Positions 4,915-54,615 of a DNA stretch of 64,000 bases are shown here, piece after piece. The notes beneath the pieces are model-generated. The model was not told the origin of the DNA. It made no database searches and saw only the letters and a list, made by a program, of their open reading frames with translations. Numbering within the stretch: the first letter of the stretch is position 1; each line of letters opens with the position of its first letter. Made by a program: the position numbers and the translations under genes. Location: NCBI RefSeq assembly GCF_030384885.1, contig NZ_CP128613.1; one strand, given 5' to 3'. This stretch comes from Escherichia coli (GTDB lineage: Bacteria; Pseudomonadota; Gammaproteobacteria; Enterobacterales; Enterobacteriaceae).

Positions 4915-4946
4915 TGTGAGTTTCCTTTTCTGTGAACCTTATGGCG

Positions 4947-7397: not shown

Positions 7398-7398
7398 G

Positions 7399-7788
7399 AT
7401 GAAATATAATACGATGAATAACAACGAAATTATTTTATCACTGTGCGCTCGCATTAAAGAAACGCGTATCTCATTATCATTGACCCAACAGCAGTTAGCC
7501 GAGCGTGCATTGGTGGGCATAGCAACGGTCAAGCGGATTGAAAAGGGGGGAAGTTTAAATCTTGATACTCTCATTTCTCTTCTGCGCGCGCTGAATAAAT
7601 TGCAAAATCTCGATGCCATATTGTTCGAAGCAGAAATGCGTAATTTCAACGAAAATAGTTCCAGCGGCGAAGGGGCAGGGCGACTACAGGTACGCCAGCA
7701 ACTGACAGATTTAAACCAGAAGTCTCCAGCCCCGCACGCAGATGACCATAATTTTAGTACGGCGCTGGAAAATACCCTCTGCTGGTGA
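7399..7788 (+). CDS. XRE-family helix-turn-helix transcriptional regulator
   Basis: HTH segment LSLTQQQLAERALVGIATVKRIEKG; start ambiguous (7390/7399/7414); overlaps end of upstream gene, stop abuts yeiG stop. Confidence 0.65.
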   Translation: MKYNTMNNNEIILSLCARIKETRISLSLTQQQLAERALVGIATVKRIEKGGSLNLDTLISLLRALNKLQNLDAILFEAEMRNFNENSSSGEGAGRLQVRQQLTDLNQKSPAPHADDHNFSTALENTLCW

Positions 7789-8882: not shown

Positions 8883-9551
8883 ATGCCATCACTCAGTAAA
8901 GAAGCGGCCCTGGTTCATGAAGCGTTAGTTGCGCGAGGACTGGAAACACCGCTGCGCCCGCCCGTGCATGAAATGGATAACGAAACGCGCAAAAGCCTTA
9001 TTGCTGGTCATATGACCGAAATCATGCAGCTGCTGAATCTCGACCTGGCTGATGACAGTTTGATGGAAACGCCGCATCGCATCGCTAAAATGTATGTCGA
9101 TGAAATTTTCTCCGGTCTGGATTACGCCAATTTCCCGAAAATCACCCTCATTGAAAACAAAATGAAGGTCGATGAAATGGTTACCGTGCGCGATATCACC
9201 CTGACCAGTACCTGTGAACACCATTTTGTTACCATCGATGGCAAAGCGACGGTGGCTTATATCCCGAAAGATTCGGTGATCGGTCTGTCAAAAATTAACC
9301 GTATCGTGCAGTTCTTTGCCCAGCGTCCGCAGGTGCAGGAACGTCTGACGCAGCAAATTCTCATTGCGCTACAAACGCTGCTGGGCACCAATAACGTGGC
9401 TGTCTCTATCGATGCGGTACATTACTGCGTGAAGGCGCGTGGCATCCGCGATGCAACCAGTGCCACGACAACGACCTCTCTTGGTGGATTGTTCAAATCC
9501 AGTCAGAATACGCGCCACGAGTTTCTGCGCGCTGTGCGTCATCACAACTGA
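8883..9551 (+). CDS. folE: GTP cyclohydrolase I
   Basis: 222 aa, matches recalled FolE sequence. Confidence 0.95.
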
Positions 9552-9567
9552 TTAAAAGGCAGGAACC

Positions 9568-10725
9568 ATGGAGCGCAACGTCACGCTCGATTTTGTTCGC
9601 GGCGTCGCCATTCTGGGGATCCTGCTATTAAACATCAGCGCCTTTGGGTTACCAAAGGCGGCTTATCTCAATCCCGCCTGGTACGGCGCTATTACGCCGC
9701 AGGATGCATGGACCTGGGCATTACTCGATCTCATCGGTCAGGTGAAATTCCTCACGCTTTTTGCGTTGCTGTTTGGTGCTGGCCTGCAAATGTTGCTACC
9801 CCGTGGCAAACGCTGGATCCAGTCGCGGTTAACACTGTTAGTCTTGTTGGGCTTTATTCACGGTTTATTGTTCTGGGACGGCGATATTCTGTTGGCTTAC
9901 GGGCTGGTGGGCTTAATCTGTTGGCGGCTGGTGCGCGATGCGCCATCGGTAAAAAGCCTGTTTAATACCGGCGTCATGCTTTATCTGGTGGGGCTTGGCG
10001 TTTTGCTATTGTTGGGGTTGATTTCAGACAGTCAGACCAGCCGCGCCTGGACGCCGGATGCATCGGCTATTTTGTATGAAAAATACTGGAAGCTTCACGG
10101 CGGCGTTGAAGCGATCAGTAATCGTGCCGATGGTGTTGGCAACAGTTTACTGGCACTGGGCGCACAGTATGGCTGGCAACTGGCAGGGATGATGCTAATT
10201 GGCGCGGCGCTGATGCGCAGTGGCTGGCTGAAAGGACAGTTTAGCTTGCGCCATTATCGGCGTACCGGTTTTGTGCTGGTGGCGATTGGGGTGATCATTA
10301 ACCTTCCAGCGATCGCCCTGCAATGGCGGCTGGACTGGGCATATCGCTGGTGCGCCTTCTTACTTCAGATGCCGCGGGAACTGAGTGCGCCGTTTCAGGC
10401 GGTTGGCTATGCGTCGCTGTTTTATGGTTTCTGGCCGCAATTGAGCCGCTTTAAGCTGGTGCTCGCGATCGCCTGCGTCGGACGGATGGCGCTGACCAAC
10501 TATCTATTGCAAACGCTGATTTGTACCACGCTTTTTTATCACCTCAGTTTGTTTATGCAGTTTGACCGTCTGGAATTGCTGGCGTTTGTTATTCCGGTAT
10601 GGCTGGCGAATATTCTCTTCTCTGTTATCTGGCTGCGTTACTTCCGTCAGGGGCCGGTGGAATGGCTCTGGCGTCAGTTAACTTTACGTGCTGCCGGACC
10701 TGCATTATCTAAAACATCAAGATAA
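9568..10725 (+). CDS. yeiB: DUF418-family inner membrane protein
   Basis: 385-aa polytopic membrane protein in conserved position after folE. Confidence 0.85.
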   Translation: MERNVTLDFVRGVAILGILLLNISAFGLPKAAYLNPAWYGAITPQDAWTWALLDLIGQVKFLTLFALLFGAGLQMLLPRGKRWIQSRLTLLVLLGFIHGLLFWDGDILLAYGLVGLICWRLVRDAPSVKSLFNTGVMLYLVGLGVLLLLGLISDSQTSRAWTPDASAILYEKYWKLHGGVEAISNRADGVGNSLLALGAQYGWQLAGMMLIGAALMRSGWLKGQFSLRHYRRTGFVLVAIGVIINLPAIALQWRLDWAYRWCAFLLQMPRELSAPFQAVGYASLFYGFWPQLSRFKLVLAIACVGRMALTNYLLQTLICTTLFYHLSLFMQFDRLELLAFVIPVWLANILFSVIWLRYFRQGPVEWLWRQLTLRAAGPALSKTSR

Positions 10726-22002: not shown

Positions 22003-22914
22003 CTAATTCTGCTGTAAAAAGTGCAGAAACTGACTTAAAGCATAAGAAGGCGTTTCGTTATTACGCCAAAACACACCGACGCTGCCTTTCTGTTCAATCT
22101 TTGGCAGGTTGAGGATTGCCAGTTGCCCCTGGCTGGCATAACGTTGCGCCAGGCGTAATGACAAAATAGAGATCATATTGCTGCTTTGTAACAGGTTGGT
22201 ACTGACGTTCATCGATGCCGACTCAATCGTGTTTTCTGGCAGCATCACGCCGTGGTCTACCAGCGCATTATCAATGCTGATGCGGATGGGGGTACCTGTC
22301 GGCCAGACTATCCACCGCCAGTTAGCAAGATCATTCCAGCTGAGGGTGGCGTATTTCGCCAGTGGATGCTCAGGACGGGCGACAAAGCATACCGGCTCGG
22401 TGTAGAGCACGCGATAATTCAGCGGCAGCTGCAACGCGCGACCGCCAATTCGCCCAACCACCACATCGACAGAACCTGCCAACAGATCTTGCAGCAATGG
22501 GGTCATCACCTTCTCTTCGATATTCAGGTGTAGAGTTGGCATCTCCTTGAGCAAATGCAAAATCGCCTGGGATACGCAGTCAGTGGCGACGGGAGAACAG
22601 CCAATTTTCAGACTGCCGACCAGTCCACCTTGTTTAAAGCGAGCCAGTTCATATTGCGATCTTTCCATGTCATTGATTAACCGTTGGGCATGTTGCAATA
22701 ACAATTTGCCGCCTTCGGTCGGACGAAGCCCTTTGCTGTGCCGCTCAAAAAGTGTGAGTCCGATCTCATCTTCCAGTTGTGACAACCATTTCGAAAGCGC
22801 GGGTTGGGTGATATTCATCATCCGCGCGACATGGGTCAGATTACCCTGTTCACCCAGCGCCACCAGCATTTGCAGGTGATGTAGTTTTAGTTTTTGCGCC
22901 CAGTTCGCCATTTG
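22003..22914 (-). CDS. mhbR: LysR-family regulator of the gentisate cluster (MhbR-like)
   Basis: N-terminal HTH LTHVARMMNITQPALSKWL, divergent from the catabolic operon; start uncertain (22914 or 22959). Confidence 0.75.
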   Translation of the reverse strand, partial: QMANWAQKLKLHHLQMLVALGEQGNLTHVARMMNITQPALSKWLSQLEDEIGLTLFERHSKGLRPTEGGKLLLQHAQRLINDMERSQYELARFKQGGLVGSLKIGCSPVATDCVSQAILHLLKEMPTLHLNIEEKVMTPLLQDLLAGSVDVVVGRIGGRALQLPLNYRVLYTEPVCFVARPEHPLAKYATLSWNDLANWRWIVWPTGTPIRISIDNALVDHGVMLPENTIESASMNVSTNLLQSSNMISILSLRLAQRYASQGQLAILNLPKIEQKGSVGVFWRNNETPSYALSQFLHFLQQN

Positions 22915-23037
22915 CCATAACCTCCAGGTTATCTCTCTGCCCGAAATGCCATTGTACATCTCATCTCTTTAATCACATTATCGCAACATATACAAAACAA
23001 AAGAAACATCTACCTTACCTGCACTGAGGCATTTACT

Positions 23038-24396
23038 ATGACTCAACGACGTGATTTACAAGCACTTATCGATGCCGCTCCGGTCGGCAAGATGCAGTGG
23101 CGCGTTATCATCTGCTGTTTTCTGGTGGTAATGCTCGATGGTTTTGACACCGCGGCTATCGGCTTTATCGCCCCTGATATTCGCACTCACTGGCAGCTCA
23201 CCGCAGGCGATCTCGCCCCGCTTTTTGGTGCGGGTCTGCTGGGATTAACCGCAGGCGCACTGCTTTGTGGCCCGTTGTCCGATCGCTTTGGTCGCAAGCG
23301 GGTGATTGAGCTGTGCGTCTTTTTGTTTGGCGCGTTAAGCCTCGCCTCGGCTTTCTCACCGGATCTGCAAACGCTGGTCTTCCTGCGCTTTCTCACCGGC
23401 CTGGGTCTGGGCGGCGCGATGCCGAACACCATCACCATGACCTCGGAGTATCTGCCTGCCCGCCGCCGCGGCGCGCTGGTGACGCTGATGTTTTGCGGCT
23501 TTACGCTGGGTTCGGCGTTTGGCGGGATTGTCAGTGCGCAGCTGGTGCCGGTGATTGGCTGGCACGGCATTCTGGTGTTGGGGGGCGTGTTACCGCTGAT
23601 GCTGTTTGTCGCACTGCTGGTAGTTCTGCCGGAATCGCCACGCTGGCAGGTGCGCCGCCAGCTACCGCAGGCGGTGATTGCGAAAACCGTCAGCGCCATC
23701 ACCCGCGAGCGTTATGTCGATACCCACTTTTATCTCATTGAATCAGCCTCCGTTACAAAAGGCAGCATTCGTCAACTGTTTATGGGACGTCAGTTACCCA
23801 TTACGTTGATGTTGTGGGTAGTGTTCTTTATGAGCCTGCTGATTATTTACCTGCTCTCAAGCTGGATGCCGACGCTACTGAACCATCGCGGCATAGACCT
23901 GCAACACGCGTCCTGGGTCACCGCCGCGTTCCAGATTGGCGGTACGTTGGGCGCGCTGGCGCTGGGCGTGCTGATGGATAAGTTCAATCCTTTCCGCGTG
24001 CTGGCGCTGAGCTATGCCATAGGCGCTATATGCATCGTGATGATTGGCTTAAGCCAGGATGGATTATGGCTGATGGCGCTGGCGATTTTCGGCACCGGCA
24101 TTGGCATTAGCGGATCTCAGGTGGGGCTGAATGCGCTGACCGCAACACTTTATCCAACACAAAGTCGCGCCACGGGCGTGAGCTGGTCAAATGCTATCGG
24201 CCGCTGCGGCGCGATTGTCGGCTCGCTTTCTGGCGGCCTGATGATGGCGATGAATTTCTCTTTCGACACCCTGTTTTTCATTATCGCTGTGCCCGCGGCG
24301 ATCAGTGCGGTGATGTTAAGCCTGCTGATCACCGTGGTTCGCCAGTCGACCTCTGTCCCTGACTCACTGCCTCGCGCAGGCGTTGTGAACGAATAA
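23038..24396 (+). CDS. mhbT: MFS aromatic acid:H+ symporter (3-hydroxybenzoate/gentisate transporter-like)
   Basis: 452 aa, 12 TM, MFS motifs ([11 protein letters not shown]). Confidence 0.75.
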
Positions 24397-24407
24397 GGAG
24401 CATCCTA

Positions 24408-25436
24408 ATGACTGATAACAATCAAAAAAGCCGCGAGCAATTTTATCAGCATATTTCCGGGCAAAACCTGACCCCGCTGTGGGAGTCACTGCACCACCTG
24501 GTGCCGAAAACGCCCAACGCCAACTGTGCGCCAGCGTACTGGAATTATCAGGAGATCCGCCCGCTGCTGCTGGAGAGCGGCAGCCTGATTGGCGCGAAAG
24601 AAGCTGTGCGTCGTGTGCTGGTACTGGAAAACCCGGCGCTGCGCGGGCAGTCTTCCATTACCGCGACTTTATATGCCGGTTTGCAACTGATCATGCCGGG
24701 CGAAGTGGCACCGAGTCATCGTCATAATCAGTCGGCGCTGCGTTTTATTGTTGAAGGCAAAGGGGCATTTACCGCCGTTGATGGCGAACGCACGCCAATG
24801 AATGAGGGCGATTTTATCCTGACCCCACAATGGCGCTGGCACGATCACGGTAACCCTGGCGACGAACCGGTTATCTGGCTCGATGGACTGGATCTGCCAT
24901 TAGTGAACACTCTGGGCTGCGGTTTTGCCGAAGATTACCCGGAAGAGCAACAACCGGTAACGCGTAAAGAGGGCGATTATCTGCCACGTTACGCTGCCAA
25001 TATGTTGCCGCTGCGCCATCAGACCGGGAACTCCTCACCCATCTTTAACTACCGTTATGACCGTAGCCGCGAAGTGCTGCACGATTTAACCCGCCTGGGC
25101 GATGCCGATGAGTGGGATGGCTACAAAATGCGCTACGTCAACCCGGTCACCGGCGGCTATCCGATGCCGTCGATGGGCGCCTTCCTGCAACTGCTACCGA
25201 AAGGGTTCGCCTCCCGCGTGGCGCGTACCACTGACAGCACTATCTACCATGTAGTGGAAGGTAGCGGACAAGTCACCATCGGCAATGAAATCTTCACCTT
25301 TAGTGCAAAAGATATCTTTGTGGTGCCGACCTGGCACGGCGTGTCATTCCAGATTACGCAAGATACCGTTTTATTCAGTTTTTCGGACAGACCGGTACAA
25401 GAAGCCCTGGGGCTGTTCCGCGAAGCGCGTTATTAA
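24408..25436 (+). CDS. mhbD: Gentisate 1,2-dioxygenase (bicupin)
   Basis: 342 aa; cupin His motif [12 protein letters not shown]; size and order as in gentisate clusters. Confidence 0.8.
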
Positions 25437-25451
25437 TTTGGGAGAGAGAAA

Positions 25452-26153
25452 ATGACTCAATATGTATTCGAACCACAAGCGCCCGTTACCGTACCGGTTG
25501 TTGGCAGTGATGAACAATTCCCCGTGCGCCGCGTTTACTGTGTCGGGCGTAACTATGCCGCCCACGCCCGCGAAATGGGCTTTGATCCGGATCGTGAACC
25601 CCCCTTCTTCTTCTGCAAACCAGCAGATGCCGTTGTTCCGGTCGCCGCTGGCGAAACGCTGGCGCTGCCGTATCCGGCGCAGACCGATAACTATCATTAC
25701 GAAATTGAACTGGTGGTGGCGATTGGTAAAAAGGGCAGCGATATCCCACTGGAAAAGGCCCATGAATATGTCTGGGGTTATGCCACAGGCCTTGATATGA
25801 CTCGCCGTGACCGTCAAATGGAAATGCGTCAGATGGGCCGCCCGTGGGAAATCGGCAAAGCATTTGATCTCTCGGCCCCCATCGCACCGCTGCACAAAGC
25901 CAGCGAAACTGGCGGTATTGATAACGCACCTATCTGGTTACAGGTTAACGGCGAAGATCATCAGCGCAGCGATATTCGTCATCTCATCTGGTCAGTGAAT
26001 GAAACCATCAGCTACCTGTCAGGCTTCTTTGAACTGCAACCGGGCGATCTAATCTTTACCGGTACGCCAGAAGGGGTGGGCCCAGTAGTCAAAGGTGATG
26101 TGATCACGGGCAACGTCGAGGGCTTAACCCCTATCGCGGTGAAGATTGTCTGA
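25452..26153 (+). CDS. mhbH: Fumarylpyruvate hydrolase (FAH family)
   Basis: 233-aa FAH-fold protein following the dioxygenase. Confidence 0.75.
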
Positions 26154-26161
26154 GGTGCATG

Positions 26162-26806
26162 ATGAAGCTGTACAGTTTTTTTAATAGTTCAGCATCGTAC
26201 CGGGTACGCATTGCGCTGGCGCTGAAAGGCATTAATTACCAGACCGAAGGGGTGAATATCCGTATTGGTCAGCAAAATGAACTGGCCTATCGGCGGATGA
26301 ATCCTGTCGGGCTGGTGCCGACGCTGCTGACTGACGAGGGCGAGTCACTCGGTCAGTCGCTGGCGATTATTGACTGGCTGGATCGTCACTACCCGCAAGT
26401 TCCGCTGGTGCCGCAGGAAGAACCGGCCCGCAATAAGGTGCTGGAAATTGTCTATGCCATCGCTTGTGATATTCATCCATTGAATAACCTGCGCGTGCTG
26501 CGCTATCTGACCGAAGAGCTGAACGTCAGTGAAGAAGAGAAAAAACGCTGGTATGCGCACTGGATCCAGCAAGGGTTAAGCGCGGTGGAACAGCTACTGC
26601 GCCAGAGCCAGTCGGGGCAATTTTGTGTGGGTGAGACGCCGACGCTGGCAGACTGCTGCCTTGTTCCGCAGTGGGCGAACGCGCTACGTATGAACTGCGA
26701 TCTGAGTGGATATCCGCGCTGCAAAGCGGTGTACGACGCCTGCACACAACTGCCAGCGTTCATTGCCGCAGCGCCAGAAAATCAACAAGATAAAATTTCA
26801 GCCTGA
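26162..26806 (+). CDS. mhbI: Maleylpyruvate isomerase (GST zeta-class)
   Basis: 214-aa GST-like protein. Confidence 0.75.
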   Translation: MKLYSFFNSSASYRVRIALALKGINYQTEGVNIRIGQQNELAYRRMNPVGLVPTLLTDEGESLGQSLAIIDWLDRHYPQVPLVPQEEPARNKVLEIVYAIACDIHPLNNLRVLRYLTEELNVSEEEKKRWYAHWIQQGLSAVEQLLRQSQSGQFCVGETPTLADCCLVPQWANALRMNCDLSGYPRCKAVYDACTQLPAFIAAAPENQQDKISA

Positions 26807-26820
26807 CCAGGAGAACCATA

Positions 26821-28014
26821 ATGACTAAAGTGACACGCGCAGTAATTGTGGGAGGCGGGATCGGCGGTGCGGCAACTGCGCTGTCACTGGCCCGCCAGGG
26901 GATCAAAGTGGTGCTGCTGGAAAAGGCGCATGAGATCGGTGAGATCGGCGCAGGTATCCAGTTGGGGCCAAATGCGTTTTCGGCGTTGGATAGTCTTGGT
27001 GTTGGCGAAATCGCCCGCCAACGTGCGGTATTCACCGATCACATCACCATGATGGACGCGGTGAACGCCGAAGAAGTGGTGCGTATTGAAACCGGGCAGG
27101 CCTTTCGTGACCATTTCGGCGGCCCTTACGCGGTGATCCACCGCGTTGATATTCATGCCTCGGTGTGGGAAGCGGTACTGACGCATCCGAACGTGGAGTA
27201 TCACACCTCTACGAATGTCGTGGATATTCGTGAGACGGAAGACGATGTCACCGTTTTCGACGATCGAGGTAATAGCTGGAGCGGCGATATTTTGATTGGA
27301 TGTGATGGCGTGAAGTCAGTGGTGCGCCAGAGCTTATTAGGCGATGCGCCGCGCGTCACCGGTCATGTGGTCTACCGTGCGGTTATCGATTGTGCGGATA
27401 TGCCGGAAGATTTACGTATTAATGCGCCGGTATTGTGGGCGGGGCCGCACTGTCACCTGGTGCATTATCCTTTGCGCGGCGGCAAGCAGTATAACCTGGT
27501 GGTGACATTCCACAGCCGCCACCAGGAAGAGTGGGGCGTGAAGGATGGCAGTAAAGAGGAAGTGCTTTCCTATTTTGAAGGCATTCACCCGCGTCCTCGC
27601 CAGATGCTGGATAAACCGACGTCATGGCGACGCTGGTCAACGGCCGATCGTGAACCGGTAGGGAAATGGGGGACTAACCGCATTACGCTGGTGGGCGATG
27701 CGGCCCATCCGGTGGCGCAGTATATGGCACAAGGTGCCTGTATGGCGCTGGAAGATGCAGTAACGCTGGGTAAGGCGCTGGCGCAGTGTGAGGGTGATGC
27801 GGCGCAAGCTTTTGCGCTGTATGAGTCGGTACGTATTCCGCGTACCGCGCGCATCGTCTGGTCGACCCGTGAAATGGGGCGGGTTTATCACGCCGCAGGG
27901 GTAGAACGTCAGGTACGTAACCTGCTGTGGAAAGGGAAATCGCAGGCAGAGTTTTATCGCGGCATGGAGTGGCTGTACGGCTGGAAAGAAGATAACTGTC
28001 TGCAACCACGCTGA
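26821..28014 (+). CDS. mhbM: FAD-dependent aromatic monooxygenase, 3-hydroxybenzoate 6-hydroxylase / salicylate hydroxylase family
   Basis: N-terminal VIVGGGIGGAATALSL dinucleotide fold, DG and GD FAD motifs. Confidence 0.75.
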   Translation: MTKVTRAVIVGGGIGGAATALSLARQGIKVVLLEKAHEIGEIGAGIQLGPNAFSALDSLGVGEIARQRAVFTDHITMMDAVNAEEVVRIETGQAFRDHFGGPYAVIHRVDIHASVWEAVLTHPNVEYHTSTNVVDIRETEDDVTVFDDRGNSWSGDILIGCDGVKSVVRQSLLGDAPRVTGHVVYRAVIDCADMPEDLRINAPVLWAGPHCHLVHYPLRGGKQYNLVVTFHSRHQEEWGVKDGSKEEVLSYFEGIHPRPRQMLDKPTSWRRWSTADREPVGKWGTNRITLVGDAAHPVAQYMAQGACMALEDAVTLGKALAQCEGDAAQAFALYESVRIPRTARIVWSTREMGRVYHAAGVERQVRNLLWKGKSQAEFYRGMEWLYGWKEDNCLQPR

Positions 28015-29124: not shown

Positions 29125-29506
29125 TAGTGGAATCGCAGCTTACCAGAGACAATGAGTCGTTTATTCAGCTTCATCATCTTGTTGCGCTCCTTTCATGAGC
29201 TAAGCCATATATTGCCACTGGCGCAAGGCGCGCAGGGGAAGGACAATCGCCTCCTCCCCCTGCAAGCCCGGGCTCTGGCGAACAAAATCGCCGTTGCGCG
29301 GTACCTTCAGCTTATCCCCTTCGTCTACCGTGTCGTGCGCGAGTTAACGTATATGGACGCTCCCTCAGCCCACATTCATGTGGGCTGTCCCGGCCTTCGG
29401 GGAACGCTTCAGCGATTTTGACGCCACCAACACCGGAGCTGTTTGCAAATCAAGTACACAAAATATCGAGTTCCTGACCTGACAACTTATATGCCATATC
29501 TGATTT

Positions 29507-29590
29507 TTAAAATATCATCTTAAATACGCCAGTCACCACCAGTAGTCCAATCAGGAAAATAATCAATACAGCCCAGAGTATAATTTTCAT
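29507..29590 (-). CDS. yohP: Small membrane protein YohP (27 aa)
   Basis: Minus-strand ORF MKIILWAVLIIFLIGLLVVTGVFKMIF with AAGGA Shine-Dalgarno; below the ORF-track length cut-off. Confidence 0.8.
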   Translation of the reverse strand: MKIILWAVLIIFLIGLLVVTGVFKMIF

Positions 29591-29813
29591 TGGCGTTCCT
29601 TTATTTGTGAGTGTCGAATAAGTATAGGAAAAAACGAAGCCCTTTGCCGTTACTCATAAGTGATTAAGATAAATCGGAGAATATCATTCACTTACTGTAT
29701 ATTTTTCTGAATATGTCGTTTTATTGCCACTGATGTATTGCCACGCGAAACTAAAAAATATATTGAATCACACGGTAATCTCCGCGCACCTTTTCTTACC
29801 TGACTATTCCTCC

Positions 29814-31250
29814 ATGAATCGTGATTCCTTTTACCCAGCCATCGCCTGTTTTCCTCTGTTACTGATGCTGGCCGGGTGTGCGCCTATGCATGAAACCCGC
29901 CAGGCGTTAAGCCAGCAAACACCCGCTGCGCAAGTTGACACCGCATTACCTACGGCGCTGAAAAATGGTTGGCCAGACAGCCAATGGTGGCTGGAGTATC
30001 ACGATAATCAACTCACTTCATTAATTAACTATGCACTGCAGAACGCACCGGATATGCAGGTGGCTGAACAGCGCATTCAGCTGGCTGAAGCCCAGGCGAA
30101 GGCAGTTGCCACTCAGGATGGCCCTCAGATCGATTTTTCTGCGGATATGGAGCGGCAAAAAATGTCGGCAGAAGGGCTAATGGGGCCGTTTGCTCTGAAC
30201 GATCCTGCCGCAGGTACGACCGGTCCGTGGTACACCAATGGTACTTTTGGCTTAACGGCGGGCTGGCATCTTGATATTTGGGGAAAGAATCGGGCGGAGG
30301 TTACTGCTCGCCTCGGTACGGTTAAAGCACGGGCGGCGGAACGCGAGCAAACCCGCCAATTGCTGGCTGGCAGCGTTGCCCGCCTTTACTGGGAGTGGCA
30401 AACCCAGGCAGCGTTAAACACTGTTTTGCAGCAAATCGAAAAAGAGCAGAACACCATTATCGCGACCGATCGCCAGCTATACCAGAACGGGATTACTTCT
30501 TCAGTTGAAGGTGTGGAAACCGATATTAATGCCAGCAAGACCCGGCAGCAGCTCAACGATGTCGTGGGAAAAATGAAAATTATTGAGGCACGGTTAAGCG
30601 CACTTACAAATCACCAGATAAAGTCATTGAAGCTTAAACCGGTTGAGTTGCCGAAAGTGGCAAGTCAGCTTCCTGATGAACTGGGGTATTCATTGCTGGC
30701 ACGGCGGGCAGATTTGCAGGCAGCGCATTGGTACGTTGAGTCATCGTTAAGCACCATTGATGCGGCAAAAGCGGCATTTTACCCTGACATCAACCTGATG
30801 GCCTTCCTGCAACAGGATGCGTTGCACTTAAGCGATTTGTTCCGTCATTCCGCGCAGCAAATGGGCGTTACGGCAGGCCTGACGCTACCCATTTTCGATA
30901 GTGGTCGTCTTAACGCCAACCTCGATATTGCAAAAGCCGAAAGCAACTTGTCTATCGCCAGCTACAACAAAGCGGTGGTTGAAGCGGTGAATGACGTGGC
31001 GCGGGCAGCCAGTCAGGTTCAGACGCTGGCGGAGAAAAACCAGCATCAGGCGCAAATTGAGCGCGATGCCTTGCGTGTGGTAGGTCTTGCGCAGGCCCGC
31101 TTTAACGCGGGTATCATTGCTGGTTCCCGCGTCAGCGAAGCCAGGATCCCGGCGCTGCGTGAGCGGGCCAATGGCCTGTTATTGCAAGGGCAGTGGCTGG
31201 ATGCCTCCATTCAACTCACTGGTGCGTTGGGCGGGGGTTACAAACGCTGA
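29814..31250 (+). CDS. mdtQ: Outer membrane efflux lipoprotein (OMF/NodT family), apparently intact
   Basis: Lipoprotein signal ...LLMLAGC; TolC-like repeats; uninterrupted 478 codons from MNRDSF. Confidence 0.8.
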   Translation: MNRDSFYPAIACFPLLLMLAGCAPMHETRQALSQQTPAAQVDTALPTALKNGWPDSQWWLEYHDNQLTSLINYALQNAPDMQVAEQRIQLAEAQAKAVATQDGPQIDFSADMERQKMSAEGLMGPFALNDPAAGTTGPWYTNGTFGLTAGWHLDIWGKNRAEVTARLGTVKARAAEREQTRQLLAGSVARLYWEWQTQAALNTVLQQIEKEQNTIIATDRQLYQNGITSSVEGVETDINASKTRQQLNDVVGKMKIIEARLSALTNHQIKSLKLKPVELPKVASQLPDELGYSLLARRADLQAAHWYVESSLSTIDAAKAAFYPDINLMAFLQQDALHLSDLFRHSAQQMGVTAGLTLPIFDSGRLNANLDIAKAESNLSIASYNKAVVEAVNDVARAASQVQTLAEKNQHQAQIERDALRVVGLAQARFNAGIIAGSRVSEARIPALRERANGLLLQGQWLDASIQLTGALGGGYKR

Positions 31251-31302: not shown

Positions 31303-32064
31303 ATGGCACAGGTCGCGATTATTACCGCTTCCGATTCGGGGATCGGCAAAGAGTGCGCGTTATTACTGGCGCAGCAGGGTTTTGATATTGGTATTACCTG
31401 GCACTCAGATGAAGAAGGGGCAAAAGATACCGCGCGTGAGGTGGTTAGCCACGGCGTACGTGCGGAGATGGTGCAGCTCGATCTCGGTAAACTGCCAGAG
31501 GGGGCACTGGCGCTGGAGAAACTTATTCAACGGCTGGGGCGCATCGATGTGCTCGTGAATAATGCGGGCACAATGACCAAAGCGCCGTTTCTTGATATGG
31601 CTTTCGATGAGTGGCGCAAGATTTTTACCGTTGATGTTGATGGTGCATTTTTATGCTCGCAAATTGCGGCCCGCCAGATGGTGAAACAAGGGCAGGGCGG
31701 TCGCATCATCAACATTACGTCGGTACATGAGCATACGCCGCTGCCGGATGCCAGCGCCTATACAGCCGCTAAACATGCACTCGGTGGGCTAACCAAAGCG
31801 ATGGCGCTTGAGCTGGTCAGGCATAAGATTTTGGTGAATGCAGTCGCGCCTGGGGCTATCGCCACGCCAATGAATGGCATGGATGACGGCGACGTGAAGC
31901 CCGACGCGGAGCCTTCGATTCCCCTGCGGCGTTTCGGCGCAACGCATGAGATTGCCAGCCTGGTGGCGTGGTTATGCTCTGAAGGCGCAAATTACACCAC
32001 CGGGCAGTCGTTAATTGTCGATGGTGGCTTTATGCTGGCGAATCCGCAGTTCAACCCAGAATAG
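31303..32064 (+). CDS. yohF: Short-chain dehydrogenase/reductase
   Basis: TASDSGIG Rossmann motif, Y-x3-K catalytic motif (YTAAK). Confidence 0.85.
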   Translation: MAQVAIITASDSGIGKECALLLAQQGFDIGITWHSDEEGAKDTAREVVSHGVRAEMVQLDLGKLPEGALALEKLIQRLGRIDVLVNNAGTMTKAPFLDMAFDEWRKIFTVDVDGAFLCSQIAARQMVKQGQGGRIINITSVHEHTPLPDASAYTAAKHALGGLTKAMALELVRHKILVNAVAPGAIATPMNGMDDGDVKPDAEPSIPLRRFGATHEIASLVAWLCSEGANYTTGQSLIVDGGFMLANPQFNPE

Positions 32065-33529: not shown

Positions 33530-33702
33530 CAAGTTCTTTTGCGTTGCATTGCTGGCGTAAATGTCAGCAATGCAGCATTTCCTCACGATTCTTCTTTGAC
33601 GATCGCACTTTTTGCTCGTTATGATGGCGTCGCTAGCCTCAGTAAATCCTTACTCCGGCGGTGCGCAACCTGTGCGCGTGAACCACTATCTGAATGCTCA
33701 TC

Positions 33703-34635
33703 ATGCCGAAATTTCGAGTTTCTTTATTTAGCCTGGCCCTGATGCTGGCTGTGCCTTTTGCACCGCAGGCCGTTGCGAAAACGGCAGCCGCTACCACCGC
33801 TTCACAGCCGGAAATTGCCTCCGGTAGCGCTATGATTGTTGATCTGAATACCAACAAAGTGATCTATTCGAACCACCCGGATCTGGTGCGTCCGATTGCG
33901 TCTATCAGCAAATTAATGACCGCGATGGTTGTGCTGGATGCACGATTGCCGCTGGATGAAAAACTGAAAGTGGATATCAGCCAGACGCCGGAGATGAAAG
34001 GGGTCTATTCGCGCGTACGACTGAACAGCGAAATCAGCCGTAAAGATATGCTGTTGCTGGCGCTGATGTCTTCAGAAAACCGCGCGGCGGCAAGCCTTGC
34101 GCACCATTATCCCGGTGGTTACAAAGCCTTTATTAAGGCGATGAATGCGAAAGCGAAATCGCTCGGAATGAACAACACGCGCTTTGTTGAACCGACCGGA
34201 TTGTCGGTGCATAACGTTTCAACTGCCCGTGACTTAACCAAACTGCTCATTGCCAGCAAACAATATCCGTTGATTGGTCAGTTAAGTACTACCAGGGAAG
34301 ATATGGCAACCTTCTCTAACCCGACGTATACGCTGCCGTTCCGCAATACTAACCATCTGGTGTATCGCGATAACTGGAATATTCAGTTAACCAAAACGGG
34401 CTTTACCAATGCGGCGGGCCATTGTCTGGTGATGCGTACGGTTATCAATAATAAACCGGTAGCGTTGGTGGTGATGGACGCGTTTGGCAAATATACCCAT
34501 TTTGCCGATGCCAGCCGCCTGCGTACCTGGATTGAAACCGGTAAAGTGATGCCTGTTCCGGCAGCAGCGTTGAGCTATAAAAAACAAAAAGCCGCCCAGA
34601 TGGCGGCGGCGGGGCAGACGGCGCAGAACGATTAA
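33703..34635 (+). CDS. pbpG: D-alanyl-D-alanine endopeptidase (PBP7)
   Basis: Signal peptide, SxxK motif (SISK), SEN motif (SSEN), KTG motif. Confidence 0.9.
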
Positions 34636-34815
34636 GGGTAGGCAGGATAAGGCGTTTACGCCGCATCAGGCATTCGGAGCACGATGCCTGATGCGATGCT
34701 TGCGCATCTTATCAGGCCTACAAACGTGACGCGTCCGTAGGCAGGATAAGGCGTTCACGCCGCATCCGGCATTCGGTGCACGATGCCTGATGCGATGCTT
34801 CTATTTGCATCAGGC
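34636..34815. repeat. BIME: two tandem ~60-bp units each containing REP palindromes
   Basis: aggcaggataaggcgtt(t/c)acgccgcatc(a/c)ggcattcgg(a/t)gcacgatgcctgatgcgatgctt occurs twice. Confidence 0.8.
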
Positions 34816-49567: not shown

Positions 49568-50700
49568 GACTGAAGATTCTCCGCAAGCCAGGTAGCCAGT
49601 TCGCCCGGTGTCATGGCAGCTATTTGTGCGCCGACATTTACCAGCGCCTGGGCTGTATCGCGGTCGTAGCAAGGTGTTGCGGTGCTATCGAGCGCTGCCA
49701 GTCCCAGCACTTTGATGCCGCTCTGGACACACTTTTTCACCTGATGCGTCAGCAAAGATGATGAACCCCCTTCATAAAAATCGCTCACGAGTATGATGAC
49801 GCTTTTCGCTGGTTGTTCAATAAGTTGCCGACCATATTCCACGGCACTGGCGATATTGGTCCCGCCGCCCAATTGTACTTTCATTAATAACTCTACCGGA
49901 TCGGCAACGTCGGCAGTGAGATCGACGACGTTAGTGTCAAAAGCGACCAGATGGGTACGAATGCCGGGTAACTGCCATAAACAGGCCGCCATCACCGCTG
50001 AGTGGATCACCGAGTCAACCATCGATCCGCTTTGATCAACCAGTAACACCAGCTGCCATTGTTCGCTATGGCGCTTAATGCGACTGTTAAAGCGGGGGGA
50101 TTCGATATACAACTTGCCGTGTTGCGGGTGCCAGTGTTGCAGGTTGGCGCGCAGAGTACTTTTGAAATCGAAATTACGCGCCAGTGGAATAAATGAGCGG
50201 CGACGGCGATCGCGGACACCAGAAAAAGCCTGACGAACTTCCTTTGCCAGTCGCGCCATAATTTCTTCAACAACCTGGCGCACTATCCGGCGGGCGGCAG
50301 CCAGCACTTCGGGATTCATCAGATGTTTGGTGTGCAAAACGGCGCGTAACAGGCTTTCAGAGGGCTGCATACGTTCCAGCACGTCGAGATTTGTCACTAC
50401 ATCTTCAATGCCATAGCGCAGTACAGCATCGCTTTCCAGCCGCTCAATCACCTGTTGCGGAAACAGCGTGTGAATACTGTTGATCCAATCAGGGGTGGTG
50501 AGATTTGAGCCACCTAATCCACCGGAGCGTTCACCACGCTGGAGCCGTTCAGGATCGCGCCCGTACAGCCACTCCAGCGCGTGGTCCATCCGCCGGGCGT
50601 TGTCATCCAGCCCACAAAGCGTCGTTTCTGCCGCTTCGCCAAGAATTAATCGCCAGCGTTGTAGCTCACGAGTGGTCAGAAGATCGTTCAGTTCAGACAT
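49564..50700 (-). CDS. yehP: von Willebrand factor A (VWA) domain protein
   Basis: MIDAS motif LLVDQSGSM; start at MSELNDLL; overlaps yehM stop. Confidence 0.8.
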   Translation of the reverse strand: MSELNDLLTTRELQRWRLILGEAAETTLCGLDDNARRMDHALEWLYGRDPERLQRGERSGGLGGSNLTTPDWINSIHTLFPQQVIERLESDAVLRYGIEDVVTNLDVLERMQPSESLLRAVLHTKHLMNPEVLAAARRIVRQVVEEIMARLAKEVRQAFSGVRDRRRRSFIPLARNFDFKSTLRANLQHWHPQHGKLYIESPRFNSRIKRHSEQWQLVLLVDQSGSMVDSVIHSAVMAACLWQLPGIRTHLVAFDTNVVDLTADVADPVELLMKVQLGGGTNIASAVEYGRQLIEQPAKSVIILVSDFYEGGSSSLLTHQVKKCVQSGIKVLGLAALDSTATPCYDRDTAQALVNVGAQIAAMTPGELATWLAENLQS

Positions 50701-52972
50701 GGAAAACTCCCCAGTGTTGCAGTGATGCCAGTGCCTGCTGTTCGAGCTGTTGATGATGTGCAATGGCTTGCGGTGGGCAATGCAACGGCATTTGCAGCGC
50801 CGAAACGGGAAGCTGAGCGAGCTGGTAATGCTCAAGCACCTGATGCGCCAGCGTCCCGCGTTCTCGTGGCGGTAGCCAGGCCATCGCCGCGCGTAAATCG
50901 GGCAGGGCGTTAATAAAATCGGCGTCACTCAGTTGATTCAAATGGCTGCTGAAACCGGCGATAAATGCAGGCTGACTGGCCAGTTGATGGCGGGCTAATG
51001 CCAGCAAACCGTGCAGCGCCTCGCCAGATTGTGCCGGGGATAATTGTGCCAGCATCGTCAGCGCCGCTTCGGCACTGGCGTTGGGATGTTCCAGACGCAT
51101 CAGCGCGCCAAGGGCCGCACCGCGATCCAGCGCTGGGGCATGAATCGCCTGACTGCGACGTTCCAGTAAGGCTACCGCCGCAGAAAGCGAAACGCCGGGT
51201 AAATTAACGCCGCTATTTAGATCGCGCAGGATATGGCAAAGCGCCTGCCAGCTATGCAGGTGAGCGTGAAACTCCTTCTCATCCGGCCTGCCGTTGGATT
51301 CACATAGCCACAGTGTGCGATCGATAGCCGCGTATAACGTCGTCTGTAATATCTGCGCGCCTTGCATACCGCTGATTTCATCGAGCTGCCACAAGGCGTA
51401 AAGCACTTCCAGCGCCTGGCCCATTTCGGCAAACTGATTTTCCTGGGCGATTAATAATGTGAGTTGTTCCAGTAATTGCTGACTGAAGGACGCCAGACCC
51501 GCTAACGCTGCCTGGCTAAGACATGTGGTGATGCCGCTGATTCCACCCGCGTCCAGCATATCGGCTTCTAATTTATTGCGTGCGGCCTCCTGGAGTGTGG
51601 CACCAAAGCAGGCGGCTTCAATCAATGCCGCATGTTGGCTAAGTGGCTGGGTTAATGTCCAGCGTTCTTCACCGTTGCCCGCCAGCGTCAGTGTACTTCC
51701 TTGCTCGCGCACAATGCCGGGAATCTCCAGTATTGCCAACCGATGTAGCACCTGACTTTGCGCCAGTCCATCGGGGGTAAAGCGATTTAAGGTAAGCTCC
51801 GCCGGAAGAGAGATTCCGGTACGTTCCAGTTCGCAGGTGACATCTTTTGGCAGAGGTGGCTGTGGCGTCGAGGGGGCAAGTTTACCGAATCCGTCACCTG
51901 CTAATGTGTCTATCAACGTTACCAGTATCGGATCGGTATCGGGATGAATAACGCCGCGATAGCTCCACGGCAACGGCGCATTCAAGGCTTCTTTAATCAG
52001 CGAGCCTGCTATGGCATCCAGCCAGTCAGCGCGTAACGGTAGTGTATGACCGCGCAGCTGTGCCAGCGCCATCGCATGTAGATGAGCGGCAGCCATATCC
52101 GCGGTTGAAGCAGGCAAGTGGTGCTGGCGCAAACGGGTAAGAACCGTTTTTAGTAGTTGTTCACCTGCCTGCTGCAAACCTGACTGCCAGCACCAGTTTT
52201 GCCAGACCGGGGCTGGCATTCCTGAAAGGTATCCTGCCAGCACATCAAGGCGCTTTTCACTGTATGGCGTGAGATAGCAACCTGTAACGGCATCATCCTG
52301 TGAGAGCAATTCTGGCTTGTTAATTTCTTGCGGGCATTCGCGCCACATTTTTGCAAGTGCCGGAGCGTGCCAGCCTCCGCAGACGACTAATACGTCGCCA
52401 TTATTTTGCTGCATCGCCCATGCAATCCAGCGGGCCATAAAGGCTTCGCGCTGACGATTGAGTGCATCGCCGGAGGCGTCGCCCCGCAGTTGTGCAAAAT
52501 AGTGCGCCAGTGCAGAGGGTAATATAGTTTGCTGGCTTTCATCTTCGAACAAGTGATCCCACAAGGTGTCGCTGTTATCCATGCGGGTGGCACGCAGCAG
52601 CAAGGCCTGGCTTTCCTCTTGCATATCAGGCGAATCATCCTCTTCTTCACTTTGTGCCCAGCAAGGCAAATCGATGAAGTAAGTTTGTGCCTGAATACGA
52701 CGTGCGGCTTGTAGCGCCTGCCACTCCGGCGAAAATTCAGCAAATGGCGTCCAGGCACCACGCCCAGGGGCCGCACCGTCCTGATACTGGCAATAACTGT
52801 AAATAGCTACCGGAAGCTGGTGGGCTAACAACAGTTCGTCTACCCGGTCATTAAAATCAGCAGGGCCTTCAATCAATACGTATCGTGGCCGCTGTCTTTC
52901 GATTAACGATTTCACCAGCCTGGCACAGGCTGGGCTATGATGCCGGATGCCGACAATTAACGGCTCGCTCAT
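50693..52972 (-). CDS. yehM: Large uncharacterized protein of yehLMPQ operon
   Basis: 759 aa from MSEPLIVG; no motif I recognise. Confidence 0.75.
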   Translation of the reverse strand: MSEPLIVGIRHHSPACARLVKSLIERQRPRYVLIEGPADFNDRVDELLLAHQLPVAIYSYCQYQDGAAPGRGAWTPFAEFSPEWQALQAARRIQAQTYFIDLPCWAQSEEEDDSPDMQEESQALLLRATRMDNSDTLWDHLFEDESQQTILPSALAHYFAQLRGDASGDALNRQREAFMARWIAWAMQQNNGDVLVVCGGWHAPALAKMWRECPQEINKPELLSQDDAVTGCYLTPYSEKRLDVLAGYLSGMPAPVWQNWCWQSGLQQAGEQLLKTVLTRLRQHHLPASTADMAAAHLHAMALAQLRGHTLPLRADWLDAIAGSLIKEALNAPLPWSYRGVIHPDTDPILVTLIDTLAGDGFGKLAPSTPQPPLPKDVTCELERTGISLPAELTLNRFTPDGLAQSQVLHRLAILEIPGIVREQGSTLTLAGNGEERWTLTQPLSQHAALIEAACFGATLQEAARNKLEADMLDAGGISGITTCLSQAALAGLASFSQQLLEQLTLLIAQENQFAEMGQALEVLYALWQLDEISGMQGAQILQTTLYAAIDRTLWLCESNGRPDEKEFHAHLHSWQALCHILRDLNSGVNLPGVSLSAAVALLERRSQAIHAPALDRGAALGALMRLEHPNASAEAALTMLAQLSPAQSGEALHGLLALARHQLASQPAFIAGFSSHLNQLSDADFINALPDLRAAMAWLPPRERGTLAHQVLEHYQLAQLPVSALQMPLHCPPQAIAHHQQLEQQALASLQHWGVFHV

Positions 52973-52982
52973 GCATCTTTCC

Positions 52983-54071: not shown

Positions 54072-54181
54072 ATATTCATCCCTGAAATGTATTAATGAAA
54101 TAAACGATATTTTACGCGCAATAAATGTTTGGCGCATTAGTTGTTTGAGCGGAAAATATCTGGAAAGCAGATCACAGTAAA

Positions 54182-54265
54182 TAAAAAAACCTGCTGGTGA
54201 GGCAGGTTCTTTTATTTACTACTTTCAGGCCTAACACCACGGCCTGTGCAACATCGTGTTCCAAC
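54182..54265 (-). ncRNA. orzO: Antisense antitoxin sRNA (OrzO-like) of type I TA locus
   Basis: Minus-strand promoter TTGCAA-17 nt-TATAAT (-10 at 54272-54277), 5' region complementary to toxin leader (54246-54265 vs 54412-54431, 19/20), hairpin acctgc..gcaggt + U7 terminator at 54182-54207. Confidence 0.7.
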
Positions 54266-54294
54266 GAACGAATTATAACCATCGGTGGACCCCG

Positions 54295-54322
54295 TTGCAA
54301 TTAAGATAATGAGATTTATAAT
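54295..54322 (+). promoter_or_regulatory. Promoter of toxin mRNA (TTGCAA-16 nt-TATAAT), giving ~175-nt 5' leader
   Basis: -35 ttgcaa 54295-54300 (palindromic, shared with divergent sRNA promoter), -10 tataat 54317-54322. Confidence 0.65.
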
Positions 54323-54592: not shown

Positions 54593-54615
54593 ACGGGCAA
54601 ATTGAAACGCATCTA

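Follow-up and report, generated by a model that had tools for sequence, protein, structure and literature searches.

MdtQ is one of four TolC-family outer-membrane factors (OMFs) in Escherichia coli. A 2025 review (PMC11762307) regards its gene, mdtQ, as a conserved core gene despite the pseudogene label given to it in K-12, takes UniProt Q8X659 (from O157:H7) as the MdtQ entry, and calls the function unelucidated and the promoter unconfirmed. The closest E. coli paralogue is MdtP (35% identity over the whole length), likewise a NodT-type lipoprotein, which is encoded in the operon ytcA-mdtN-mdtO-mdtP, with the architecture YtcA-HlyD-FUSC-OEP. The best sequence homologue with a solved structure is VceC from Vibrio cholerae (PDB 1yc9, E = 2.8e-39), the channel of an MFS-type pump, whereas OprM, OprN, OprJ, CusC, SilC and CmeC serve RND pumps. 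All seven are lipoprotein OMFs whose protomers have four strands and long helices, as predicted for MdtQ. TolC, from the same superfamily, has been established experimentally as the duct that most E. coli pumps use. Here we analyzed a 64-kb stretch of E. coli DNA (hereafter the window) that contains an intact, probably functional wild-type allele of mdtQ (formerly yohG).

The mdtQ allele and its product

Three features belong to the gene itself:

29814..31250, + strand: mdtQ CDS, an uninterrupted ORF for an intact OMF lipoprotein of 478 aa
29814..29879, + strand: MdtQ lipoprotein signal peptide with lipobox L19-A20-G21-C22, read directly from the sequence
29961..29965, + strand: A5 run at codons K50-N51, the site of the K-12 deletion (A4 in K-12)

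The first-pass annotation had described an unbroken ORF with a LAGC lipobox, and both are present. The ORF runs on the + strand from the ATG at 29814 to the TGA at 31248-31250 (478 codons), and the N-terminus of the protein is MNRDSFYPAIACFPLLLMLAGC-AP, with the codon of Cys22 at 29877-29879. This Cys is invariant across a 60-sequence family alignment, and a lipobox-type Cys followed by AP is seen in every intact mdtQ orthologue. Cys22 would be the lipidated N-terminus of MdtQ, as predicted from these residues. By the established Lol sorting rule, Asp is the inner-membrane retention signal, and this signal is absent from MdtQ since its +2 residue is Ala.

MdtQ scores 1019 bits against the NCBIfam equivalog model NF008524 (cutoff of 650), spanning residues 1-478 of 478, and 273.8 bits against TIGR01845 for NodT-type OMFs (cutoff of 210.05), spanning 16-475. 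Pfam OEP (PF02321) matches two tandem stretches (E = 3.3e-31). The RefSeq entry for this protein in a near-identical strain is WP_001078154.1. In the AF2 model (pLDDT of 84.2, pTM of 0.78) there are four strands (105-116, 139-153, 325-336 and 348-357) and long helices reaching 73 residues, and the best Foldseek matches are VceC, CusC, OprN, CmeC, OprJ, SilC and OprM. AF2 and Foldseek predict a protomer of the OprM and VceC kind, in which four beta-strands are combined with long antiparallel helices. With two OEP repeats, a lipobox Cys and an OprM/VceC-like predicted protomer, MdtQ is a member of the NodT-type OMF subfamily, and the full-length score above the cutoff, together with the orthologous slot from dusC/yohP to yohF/yohD, identifies it as an MdtQ equivalog. 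No Shine-Dalgarno sequence was found before the ATG, which suggests a low translation of mdtQ, and an Rfam search of the leader found no RNA family.

The first-pass annotation also took the K-12 copy to be a pseudogene. This is correct: RefSeq lists it as 'frameshifted', with b2139 as a pseudogene in NC_000913.3. In the MAFFT alignment, the window gene and its K-12 counterpart differ by one gap and 54 substitutions; the gap is a 1-bp deletion with no second lesion in the K-12 copy, which is thus not intact. Once the missing A is put back, the K-12 sequence has zero stop codons, so that its pseudogene status is due to this single-A loss alone. The K-12 65-mer bearing the deletion occurs exactly in 355 of 5,403 complete E. 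coli genomes; among the rows sampled, the deletion was confined to laboratory strains, and all the remaining ones contain the 66-nt span without it. O157:H7, ST131, CFT073 and JNE23-011 have an intact gene without a pseudogene flag, and at least 80% of mdtQ is present in 5,390 of 5,426 complete E. coli genomes, being chromosomal in every case. Since intact mdtQ is the norm and K-12 the exception, its intactness here is unremarkable. That mdtQ is an intact core gene is already known from the RefSeq name, the curated equivalog model and the review cited above. It follows for experimental work that K-12 is the wrong background for MdtQ studies.

The MdtQ of the window has 5 amino-acid differences from the repaired K-12 protein and 97% identity with the representative of the main E. 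coli cluster, while the nucleotide divergence of the gene from most E. coli is about 3.8%. The flanking genes diverge to the same degree, since the window derives from a rare E. coli lineage that is divergent as a whole: at folE-yeiB, 20 kb off, the close matches are again to the same set of roughly 13-17 genomes. A foreign or recombinant allele (96% identity to most E. coli) was considered and rejected, since the flanking genes are likewise at 94.5-98%.

Neighbors and the orphan locus

The neighbors were annotated from the RefSeq record of a near-identical strain, with locus coordinates shifted by 17,813. The genes on either side are:

29507..29590, - strand: yohP, encoding a small membrane protein of 27 aa; the divergent neighbor on the upstream side, not a pump component (RefSeq annotation)
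31303..32064, + strand: yohF, an SDR oxidoreductase 52 nt downstream of mdtQ, not a pump component (RefSeq annotation)

The statement that no pump or adaptor gene lies next to mdtQ holds over the whole 64 kb, where the annotation of the reference strain contains no membrane-fusion, RND, ABC-efflux or FUSC genes. The yohF gene is missing in many genera, in which yohD comes directly after mdtQ, and is a pseudogene in CFT073. A distinct K-12 transcription start is listed just upstream of yohF (PMC12052159, S2 table), and our sigma-70/terminator scan found no terminator-like site between mdtQ and yohF.

The gene order dusC-mdtQ-(yohF)-yohD-yohC-pbpG-dld-bglX is kept in about 78 Enterobacteriaceae species representatives, and the lipoprotein ORF is intact in about 74 of these. 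Judging by this synteny, the stand-alone (orphan) status of mdtQ is ancient. The gene does not belong to a YtcA-adaptor-FUSC-OMF operon, as neither the window nor any orthologous locus has an annotated YtcA/DUF1656, HlyD-type adaptor or FUSC gene, although MdtQ may function in the manner of an OMF from such an operon. In Klebsiella, Enterobacter and Kluyvera the gap between dusC and mdtQ is enlarged, and we considered a lost partner pump there, but there is no pump: the contents are an OprB porin, a BglG antiterminator, a PTS EII, a GH1 glucosidase and a methyltransferase (in Klebsiella and Enterobacter, a bgl-type operon plus the methyltransferase), or alternatively a KdgM porin downstream.

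The conserved upstream block

Upstream of mdtQ, the following features were delimited:

29719..29744, + strand: tandem direct repeat TTTTATTGCCAC / ATGTATTGCCAC, the two copies starting 14 nt apart
29741..29755, + strand: marbox-like block CCACGCGAAACTAAA (20-mer 29738-29757), in forward orientation, centered about -40 from the predicted start
29776..29781, + strand: predicted -10 hexamer TAATCT, with the predicted transcription start near 29788

The predicted promoter came from cross-species footprinting alone. Its layout is CCACGC-N3-ACTAAA, then exactly 20 unconserved bases, then the -10 hexamer. Of 75 species loci, 74 have the block, in which CAC, CT and A never vary, and TAnnnT follows exactly 20 nt after it in about 63 of 69 distinct sequences, the information in the spacer being about zero. 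The composite pattern of block plus -10 occurs once in the 64 kb (0.05 expected). There is no TTGACA-like -35 at the predicted promoter, and for this reason the generic sigma-70 and terminator scan, which returned nothing relevant near mdtQ, missed it. The downstream copy of the tandem repeat overlaps the marbox-like block; the upstream one is confined to Escherichia, apart from a partial retention in Citrobacter.

The E. coli block agrees with the mar operon marbox CCACGTTTTGCTAAA (as listed in PMC12052159, S2 table) at 10 of 15 positions, with 10-13 of 15 across genera. Against the classical consensus AYNGCACNNWNNRYYAAAYN it matches 10 of 14 defined positions, Klebsiella-type sites reaching 11-12, and a score of at least 10/14 is attained by 0.6% of the 20-mers in the window. 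The agreement with the ChIP-derived consensus GCANNWWNTGNNAAA is of 5-7 out of 10 positions. If TAnnnT is the -10 hexamer, the center at about -40 fits the class II range of -36 to -55. Block and hexamer together would have the geometry of a class II marbox promoter, for which MarA, SoxS, Rob and RamA are the candidate binding factors. Sites for sigma-E, sigma-54, CRP, CpxR, OmpR, PurR and TyrR, whose consensus sequences were compared by eye, fit the block more poorly than the marbox does. A position weight matrix from published marboxes was dropped because those sites had been selected by consensus, making the exercise circular.

It is an even call whether the block is instead the site of another activator, or an unusual promoter element, with mdtQ outside the mar/sox/rob/ram regulon. 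The E. coli site differs from GCANNWWNTGNNAAA at 5 positions and agrees with only the 10 of 14 classical ones, and mdtQ/yohG was not found in the accessible parts of an E. coli marbox screen and of Salmonella MarA/SoxS/Rob/RamA ChIP-seq lists (PMC12052159, PMC10268841). On the other hand, CAC(G) and CTAAA are invariant at a spacing equal to that of the mar operon marbox, and the orientation and the fixed 20-nt gap to the -10 suit class II geometry in all genera. The absence from the lists is weak evidence since the E. coli ChIP-seq caught few known targets (S3 table), and the E. coli screen was made on K-12 (U00096.2) with at most 2 mismatches, so that the mdtQ site would be skipped. Our literature search on mdtQ/yohG with MarA, RamA and STM2172 retrieved genome reports and two transcriptome tables, and no regulatory study was found. 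Salmonella yohG rises 5.3-fold in a ciprofloxacin-selected mutant, together with many pump genes, and is raised under hypochlorite.

Following the footprint, transcription of mdtQ would begin near 29788 from an activator-dependent promoter with class II marbox geometry, in which case expression is probably conditional and not constitutive. A more ambitious proposal is that mdtQ is a family-wide mar/sox/rob/ram member, through a class II marbox promoter kept at a fixed 20-nt spacing ever since the radiation of the Enterobacteriaceae, and an inducible duct for FUSC/PET pumps that lack an OMF of their own (AaeAB, YdhJK) or for MFS pumps. We hold this only tentatively and consider it rather unlikely in its entirety. 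If true, the regulon membership would have been overlooked because the E. coli mapping uses a strain in which mdtQ is a pseudogene and a stringent consensus misses the site.

Partner pump, function and known systems

Among the 120 matches listed in the first large protein search there were only orthologues of MdtQ, and the gene context of more distant relatives came from a 50%-representative search. The nearest non-orthologous relatives have 35-41% identity, and five of them have an informative context. Four adjoin a FUSC transporter, three of these in complete YtcA-adaptor-FUSC-OMF operons, an architecture shared with the MdtP operon; the fifth lies in an MFS-OMF-EmrA-like cluster. By analogy, this context hints indirectly at a FUSC/PET-type (AaeAB-, YdhJK-like) or MFS partner for MdtQ, rather than an RND one. 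AaeAB functions in MG1655, whose mdtQ is broken (PMC11481567), and so does not strictly need MdtQ. Neither the predicted promoter with marbox geometry nor the kinship of MdtQ to channels of FUSC-type pumps was found in searchable papers, and both are concrete experimental leads on this protein.

Going by what holds for the OMF family, MdtQ would be exported by Sec, lipidated at Cys22 and Lol-sorted to the outer membrane, where it may trimerise into a beta-barrel with a periplasmic alpha-helical tunnel. The tunnel would engage the hairpins of a membrane-fusion protein whose gene lies elsewhere, and a tripartite pump would thereby have its exit duct. The relatives make an EmrA/AaeA-type adaptor pump (FUSC/PET, such as AaeAB and YdhJK, or MFS) a likelier partner than RND. 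For the whole explanation, that this is wild-type mdtQ encoding an OMF lipoprotein, with its pump partner elsewhere and an activator-dependent promoter, we estimate a probability of about 85%.

Another reading is that MdtQ is a channel for non-drug cargo, such as an endogenous metabolite, an aromatic acid or a type I-like secretion substrate. We find this possible but doubtful, and it overlaps the explanation preferred here without excluding it. The FUSC/PET relatives of the AaeAB kind are metabolic relief valves for aromatic carboxylates (PMC11481567), and in this lineage a 3-hydroxybenzoate/gentisate catabolic cluster lies one gene from mdtQ, as it does in many Citrobacter, Salmonella and Klebsiella genomes; the published drug phenotypes, too, are marginal. 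However, the cluster is variably present and dusC stands between it and mdtQ. The phenotypes cited for K-12 mdtQ null mutants concern puromycin, acriflavine and tetraphenylarsonium (PMC11762307); since K-12 mdtQ is already frameshifted at codon 50, they are hard to reconcile and constitute weak evidence of function, and call for repetition in a strain with an intact allele.

It is improbable that MdtQ is a back-up for TolC, docking with AcrA-, MdtA-, EmrA- and MacA-type adaptors and replacing TolC once induced. The two share a fold class, a marbox-like promoter would put mdtQ in one stress regulon with tolC and acrAB, and the increases of Salmonella yohG mentioned above agree with this role. 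However, MdtQ is much nearer to the NodT/OprM/VceC lipoprotein branch (Foldseek E-values of 1e-23, against 1e-14 for TolC), its identity with TolC is about 12-13%, and the systems found with its nearest relatives are of the FUSC or MFS type and not RND. Moreover, in Salmonella, Klebsiella and pathogenic E. coli, where mdtQ is intact, tolC mutants are known to be hypersusceptible all the same, which means that MdtQ does not make up for TolC under laboratory conditions.

The dN/dS of mdtQ is 0.028 against the repaired K-12 sequence and 0.035-0.051 against other Escherichia, and the gene is under strong purifying selection within the genus. These low values and the same orphan slot in ~78 species indicate a maintained core gene. 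On the other hand, mdtQ is truncated by IS1 in STEC379, broken in C. koseri, one C. amalonaticus and Leclercia NCTC13032, and truncated in part of the isolates of S. Typhi and Paratyphi A (PMC9241588). Given these several independent losses, it is dispensable in some niches. That mdtQ is a functionless, decaying relic, with K-12 showing the future of all lineages, is highly improbable: the independent inactivations (K-12, STEC379, C. koseri, Leclercia, some Typhi), the lack of a linked pump and of a Shine-Dalgarno sequence, and the absence of a clear phenotype from the literature speak for it, but selection and conservation already contradict it, with dN/dS of 0.03-0.05, the ORF and lipobox kept in about 74 of 78 species representatives across the family, at least 99% of complete E. 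coli genomes keeping the gene, and a conserved promoter architecture upstream.

Compared with the known MdtQ/YohG of E. coli (NF008524; UniProt Q8X659, O157:H7), the gene in the window has the same length, lipobox and chromosomal slot, the differences being only allelic. The paralogue mdtP closes an operon that also encodes an adaptor and a FUSC transporter, whereas mdtQ has neither, in the 64 kb as in ~78 species. The MdtQ model aligns with VceC, OprM, OprN, OprJ, CusC, SilC and CmeC at TM of 0.77-0.89, with 18-25% sequence identity, and each of these is encoded with its own pump, unlike mdtQ. Upstream, the class II mar/sox/rob promoters (fumC, inaA, rfaY and the marRAB marbox) have a forward, bipartite CAC...CTAAA over the -35, which the mdtQ block resembles, and the predicted mdtQ promoter would share with them the center at about -40 and the fixed distance to the -10, while the block departs from the ChIP-derived consensus at the central WW and TG positions. 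TolC differs in not being a lipoprotein, but resembles MdtQ in overall architecture and in having its gene away from the pumps served.

The mdtQ gene and its K-12 counterpart

The following features frame the outer-membrane factor (OMF) gene mdtQ.

Features of the mdtQ gene
29814-31250 (+), mdtQ, single uninterrupted ORF of 478 codons
Adjoining mdtQ, divergent: yohP, 27-aa membrane protein
Other immediate neighbours: dusC; yohF (SDR); yohD (DedA family); yohC

As the first-pass annotation had proposed, the ORF is uninterrupted and its product starts with a predicted lipoprotein signal peptide, MNRDSFYPAIACFPLLLMLAGC-AP, with the lipobox LAGC and Cys22. The protein aligns along its whole length (1-478 of 478) with NF008524, the NCBIfam MdtQ equivalog (1019 bits, cutoff 650), also passes TIGR01845, the NodT-type OMF subfamily (273.8, cutoff 210), and contains two OEP repeats (Pfam).

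The K-12 copy, given as a pseudogene in the first-pass annotation, is indeed one: it is flagged 'frameshifted' in RefSeq, and b2139 is a pseudogene in NC_000913.3. The alignment with K-12, also suggested in the first-pass annotation, has a single gap, AAAAA at 29961-29965 (codons K50-N51) against AAAA, corresponding to a 1-bp deletion in a K-12 gene that is not intact. Only 5 of the 54 substitutions between both copies alter the amino acid. Since K-12 mdtQ repaired with the missing A has no stop codons and a dN/dS of 0.028 against the window, the frameshift is recent and the sole lesion.

A probe for the K-12 form (65 nt of K-12 sequence spanning the deletion) matched exactly in 355 of 5,403 genomes, and the four of these 355 that were listed are laboratory strains or have no natural source; every other sampled row has the 66-nt span with the fifth A. 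The annotations of O157:H7, ST131, CFT073 and a Japanese clinical isolate carry no mdtQ pseudogene flag. STEC379, with a truncated, IS1-associated mdtQ, represents a rare loss, and mdtQ is independently truncated in certain isolates of S. Typhi and Paratyphi A (PMC9241588). Intact mdtQ is the rule and K-12 the exception. The gene is a known core gene, and the allele in the window is its ordinary wild-type form.

The initial finding is thus right, yet already known, since mdtQ is covered by PMC9241588 and by a 2025 TolC review (PMC11762307). The latter counts four E. coli OMFs (TolC, CusC, MdtP and MdtQ) and describes mdtQ as 'encoded independently', its function not elucidated and its promoter not confirmed. 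Published phenotypes of mdtQ null mutants, if obtained in K-12 derivatives, are difficult to explain when the gene is already frameshifted at codon 50. The channel is still uncharacterised, mostly owing to its absence from the model strain.

The orphan locus and the lineage of the window

Genes for membrane-fusion proteins, RND, FUSC or efflux ABC components are not annotated anywhere in the 64 kb, as read from the near-identical E. coli 2013C-4282 (human stool, USA; 3 base differences in 25 kb compared), where RefSeq names the gene mdtQ (WP_001078154.1). The absence of an adjacent pump or adaptor gene, claimed from the sequence alone, is therefore upheld.

Scanning a single representative genome for each bacterial species yielded 79 loci, and the order dusC-mdtQ-(yohF)-yohD-yohC-pbpG-dld-bglX is kept in about 78 Enterobacteriaceae species, including Escherichia, Citrobacter, Salmonella, Klebsiella, Raoultella, Enterobacter, Kluyvera, Lelliottia, Leclercia, Pluralibacter, Yokenella, Phytobacter and Superficieibacter. 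About 74 of these about 78 species have a full-length ORF in which AP comes directly after a lipobox-type Cys; C. koseri, one C. amalonaticus and Leclercia NCTC13032 have a broken mdtQ. The larger dusC-mdtQ gap of Klebsiella and Enterobacter holds no pump, its contents being a methyltransferase gene and a bgl-type sugar operon. The SDR gene yohF has an internal stop in CFT073 (locus L095, 1790-2037) and is missing in many species (loci L006, L008, L010-L014 and others), where mdtQ is directly followed by yohD, so yohF is more expendable than mdtQ.

Among Escherichia, the dN/dS of mdtQ is 0.035-0.051. At the protein level, the identity of MdtQ is 81% to Citrobacter and 69% to Klebsiella, against 89-94% and 83-91% for the neighbouring genes, so MdtQ evolves faster than they do. 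Faster change is common in surface-exposed proteins.

The mdtQ allele of the window is present at >=99% identity in only 17 of 5,420 complete E. coli genomes, all others being at <=96.8%. We considered an unusual mdtQ allele and rejected it: folE-yeiB, 20 kb off, has close matches in essentially the same genomes only (13 at >=99%, about 17 at >=98.5%), and the flanking genes are similarly divergent from K-12 (94.5-98% identity; mdtQ 96.2%). For 8883-10725 and 29814-31250, only about 13-17 of 5,426 complete genomes are >=99% identical and the others reach at most about 97.5%, with 2-5.5% divergence from K-12 across the region. Given these shared close genomes and similar levels of divergence, the window comes from an E. 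coli lineage that is both rare and divergent, possibly a cryptic-clade-like group.

Other features were observed in the window.

Other features of the window
3592-7788, cirA-yeiG interval: genes for an MFS transporter, a SerB-type phosphoserine phosphatase, an L-serine ammonia-lyase and an HTH protein
22003-28014, between yohJ and dusC: six-gene 3-hydroxybenzoate/gentisate cluster (LysR regulator (-), mhbT, gentisate 1,2-dioxygenase, FAH-family hydrolase, maleylpyruvate/maleylacetoacetate isomerase, 3-hydroxybenzoate 6-monooxygenase)
29164-29430, dusC-yohP gap: ~270-bp repeat, inverted relative to K-12, 82% identity to the K-12 repeat
33618-33698 (+), pbpG leader: Peptidase-S11 RNA motif (Rfam, 73.1 bits)
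33703-34635: pbpG, a proven mar-regulon target three genes downstream of mdtQ
34641-34718 (+), pbpG-dld gap: naRNA4 match (nucleoid-associated ncRNA, REP-type; 74.2 bits)
50034-64000 (-), right end: three consecutive DUF4132-domain genes (~1,200 aa each), adjoining the yehL-yehM-yehP-SWIM zinc-finger (yehQ-like) cluster
54183-54258 and 54794-54867 (-), ~0.9-kb unannotated yehL-yehK gap: two OrzO-P antitoxin sRNA family copies (Rfam, 98.9 and 90.6 bits)

The four genes between cirA and yeiG may form an accessory islet, since cirA presumably adjoins yeiG in K-12. The 3-hydroxybenzoate/gentisate cluster is absent from K-12, where yohJ adjoins dusC. Many representatives of Citrobacter, Salmonella and Klebsiella, and one other of E. 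coli, have the cluster at this same site. Both OrzO-P matches imply a putative tandem zor-orz type I toxin-antitoxin pair. The ~270-bp repeat is TRIP1c (PMC10888264), and the 89-aa ORF within it (29152-29421) is probably spurious.

A conserved block and a predicted promoter upstream of mdtQ

Cross-genera alignment exposed a block upstream of mdtQ that survives where the remaining intergenic sequence does not.

Predicted promoter elements
29741-29755, conserved block, Escherichia form CCACGCGAAACTAAA
29776-29781, predicted -10 hexamer TAATCT

Of 75 loci, 74 have the pattern CAC-N6-CT(A/T)A. It lies 57-75 nt 5' of the ATG, in most cases 69-72 nt, with CCACGCGTAACTAAA, ACACGCTTTACTAAA and CCACGCGTTACTAAA as common forms. 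Across an essentially unconserved spacer of exactly 20 nt, the block is followed by a TAnnnT hexamer (TATGAT in K. pneumoniae, TAATTT in Enterobacter) in about 63 of the 69 distinct sequences. In the 64-kb window, both strands considered, there is one occurrence of the composite pattern, against 0.05 expected. Ahead of the hexamer there is no TTGACA-like -35, which is why a generic scan missed the promoter and which implies dependence on an activator. An activator-dependent mdtQ promoter is thus a well-supported prediction. The stretch ahead of the ATG, 29795-29813 (...CTGACTATTCCTCC-ATG), has no Shine-Dalgarno-like sequence, as in the orthologues of other genera, which suggests weak translation initiation.

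The block resembles the marbox of the mar operon, CCACGTTTTGCTAAA (the S2 table of PMC12052159 gives the reverse complement), and begins with CCA like the mlaF site. [quoted passage not shown] The sequence match is only moderate: of the 14 defined positions of the consensus AYNGCACNNWNNRYYAAAYN quoted in PMC2064960, the E. coli block matches 10, a score reached by 0.6% of window 20-mers, and that of other genera 11-12, while the ChIP-derived consensus GCANNWWNTGNNAAA gives 5 mismatches. In the available portions of text and supplements, mdtQ/yohG is mentioned neither in the E. coli marbox screen nor in the Salmonella ChIP-seq (PMC12052159, PMC10268841); the former used K-12 (U00096.2), allowed <=2 mismatches, and its ChIP-seq recovered a minority of known targets (PMC12052159). 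Published expression data from Salmonella offer indirect hints: a ciprofloxacin-selected mutant shows yohG raised 5.3-fold, and hypochlorite raises it 2^1.6-fold. We would give a MarA-like activator roughly even odds or less.

Candidate partners and related channels

MdtP is the closest E. coli paralogue of MdtQ (35% identity, full length), and its gene is the last of ytcA-mdtN-mdtO-mdtP, encoding YtcA, an HlyD-type adaptor, a FUSC-family transporter and the OMF. Among 1.84 billion representative proteins, the nearest non-orthologous relatives have 35-41% identity, with informative gene context in five. Three (P0127, P0128, P0129) lie within complete YtcA-adaptor(AaeA-like)-FUSC-OMF operons, P0125 has a FUSC gene directly upstream on a short contig, and P0131 belongs to an MFS-OMF-EmrA-like-adaptor cluster. 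A 60% relative, P0121, looks like an mdtQ orthologue, since it too is an orphan, with an SDR gene following it.

Together with VceC as best structural match, these contexts suggest that MdtQ belongs to the branch of channels that work through EmrA/AaeA-type adaptors for FUSC/PET or MFS transporters, rather than for RND pumps. AaeXAB and YdhIJK, the two E. coli FUSC systems without a linked channel, would be the natural candidate partners. A strict need of AaeAB for MdtQ is disfavoured, since AaeAB works in MG1655 (PMC11481567), where mdtQ is broken. Both the kinship with FUSC-type pump channels and the conserved class II-type promoter are cheap to test and would help assign MdtQ function.

By sequence, VceC of Vibrio cholerae is the top solved homologue (E = 2.8e-39), followed by OprM, CmeC, SilC, CusC, OprN, MtrE and OprJ. 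The AlphaFold2 model (input alignment of 60 sequences, mean pLDDT 84.2) predicts four beta-strands and very long helices, as expected for an OMF. Foldseek against the PDB places VceC, CusC, OprN, CmeC, OprJ, SilC and OprM on top (TM 0.77-0.89), with TolC clearly below these VceC/OprM-type channels.
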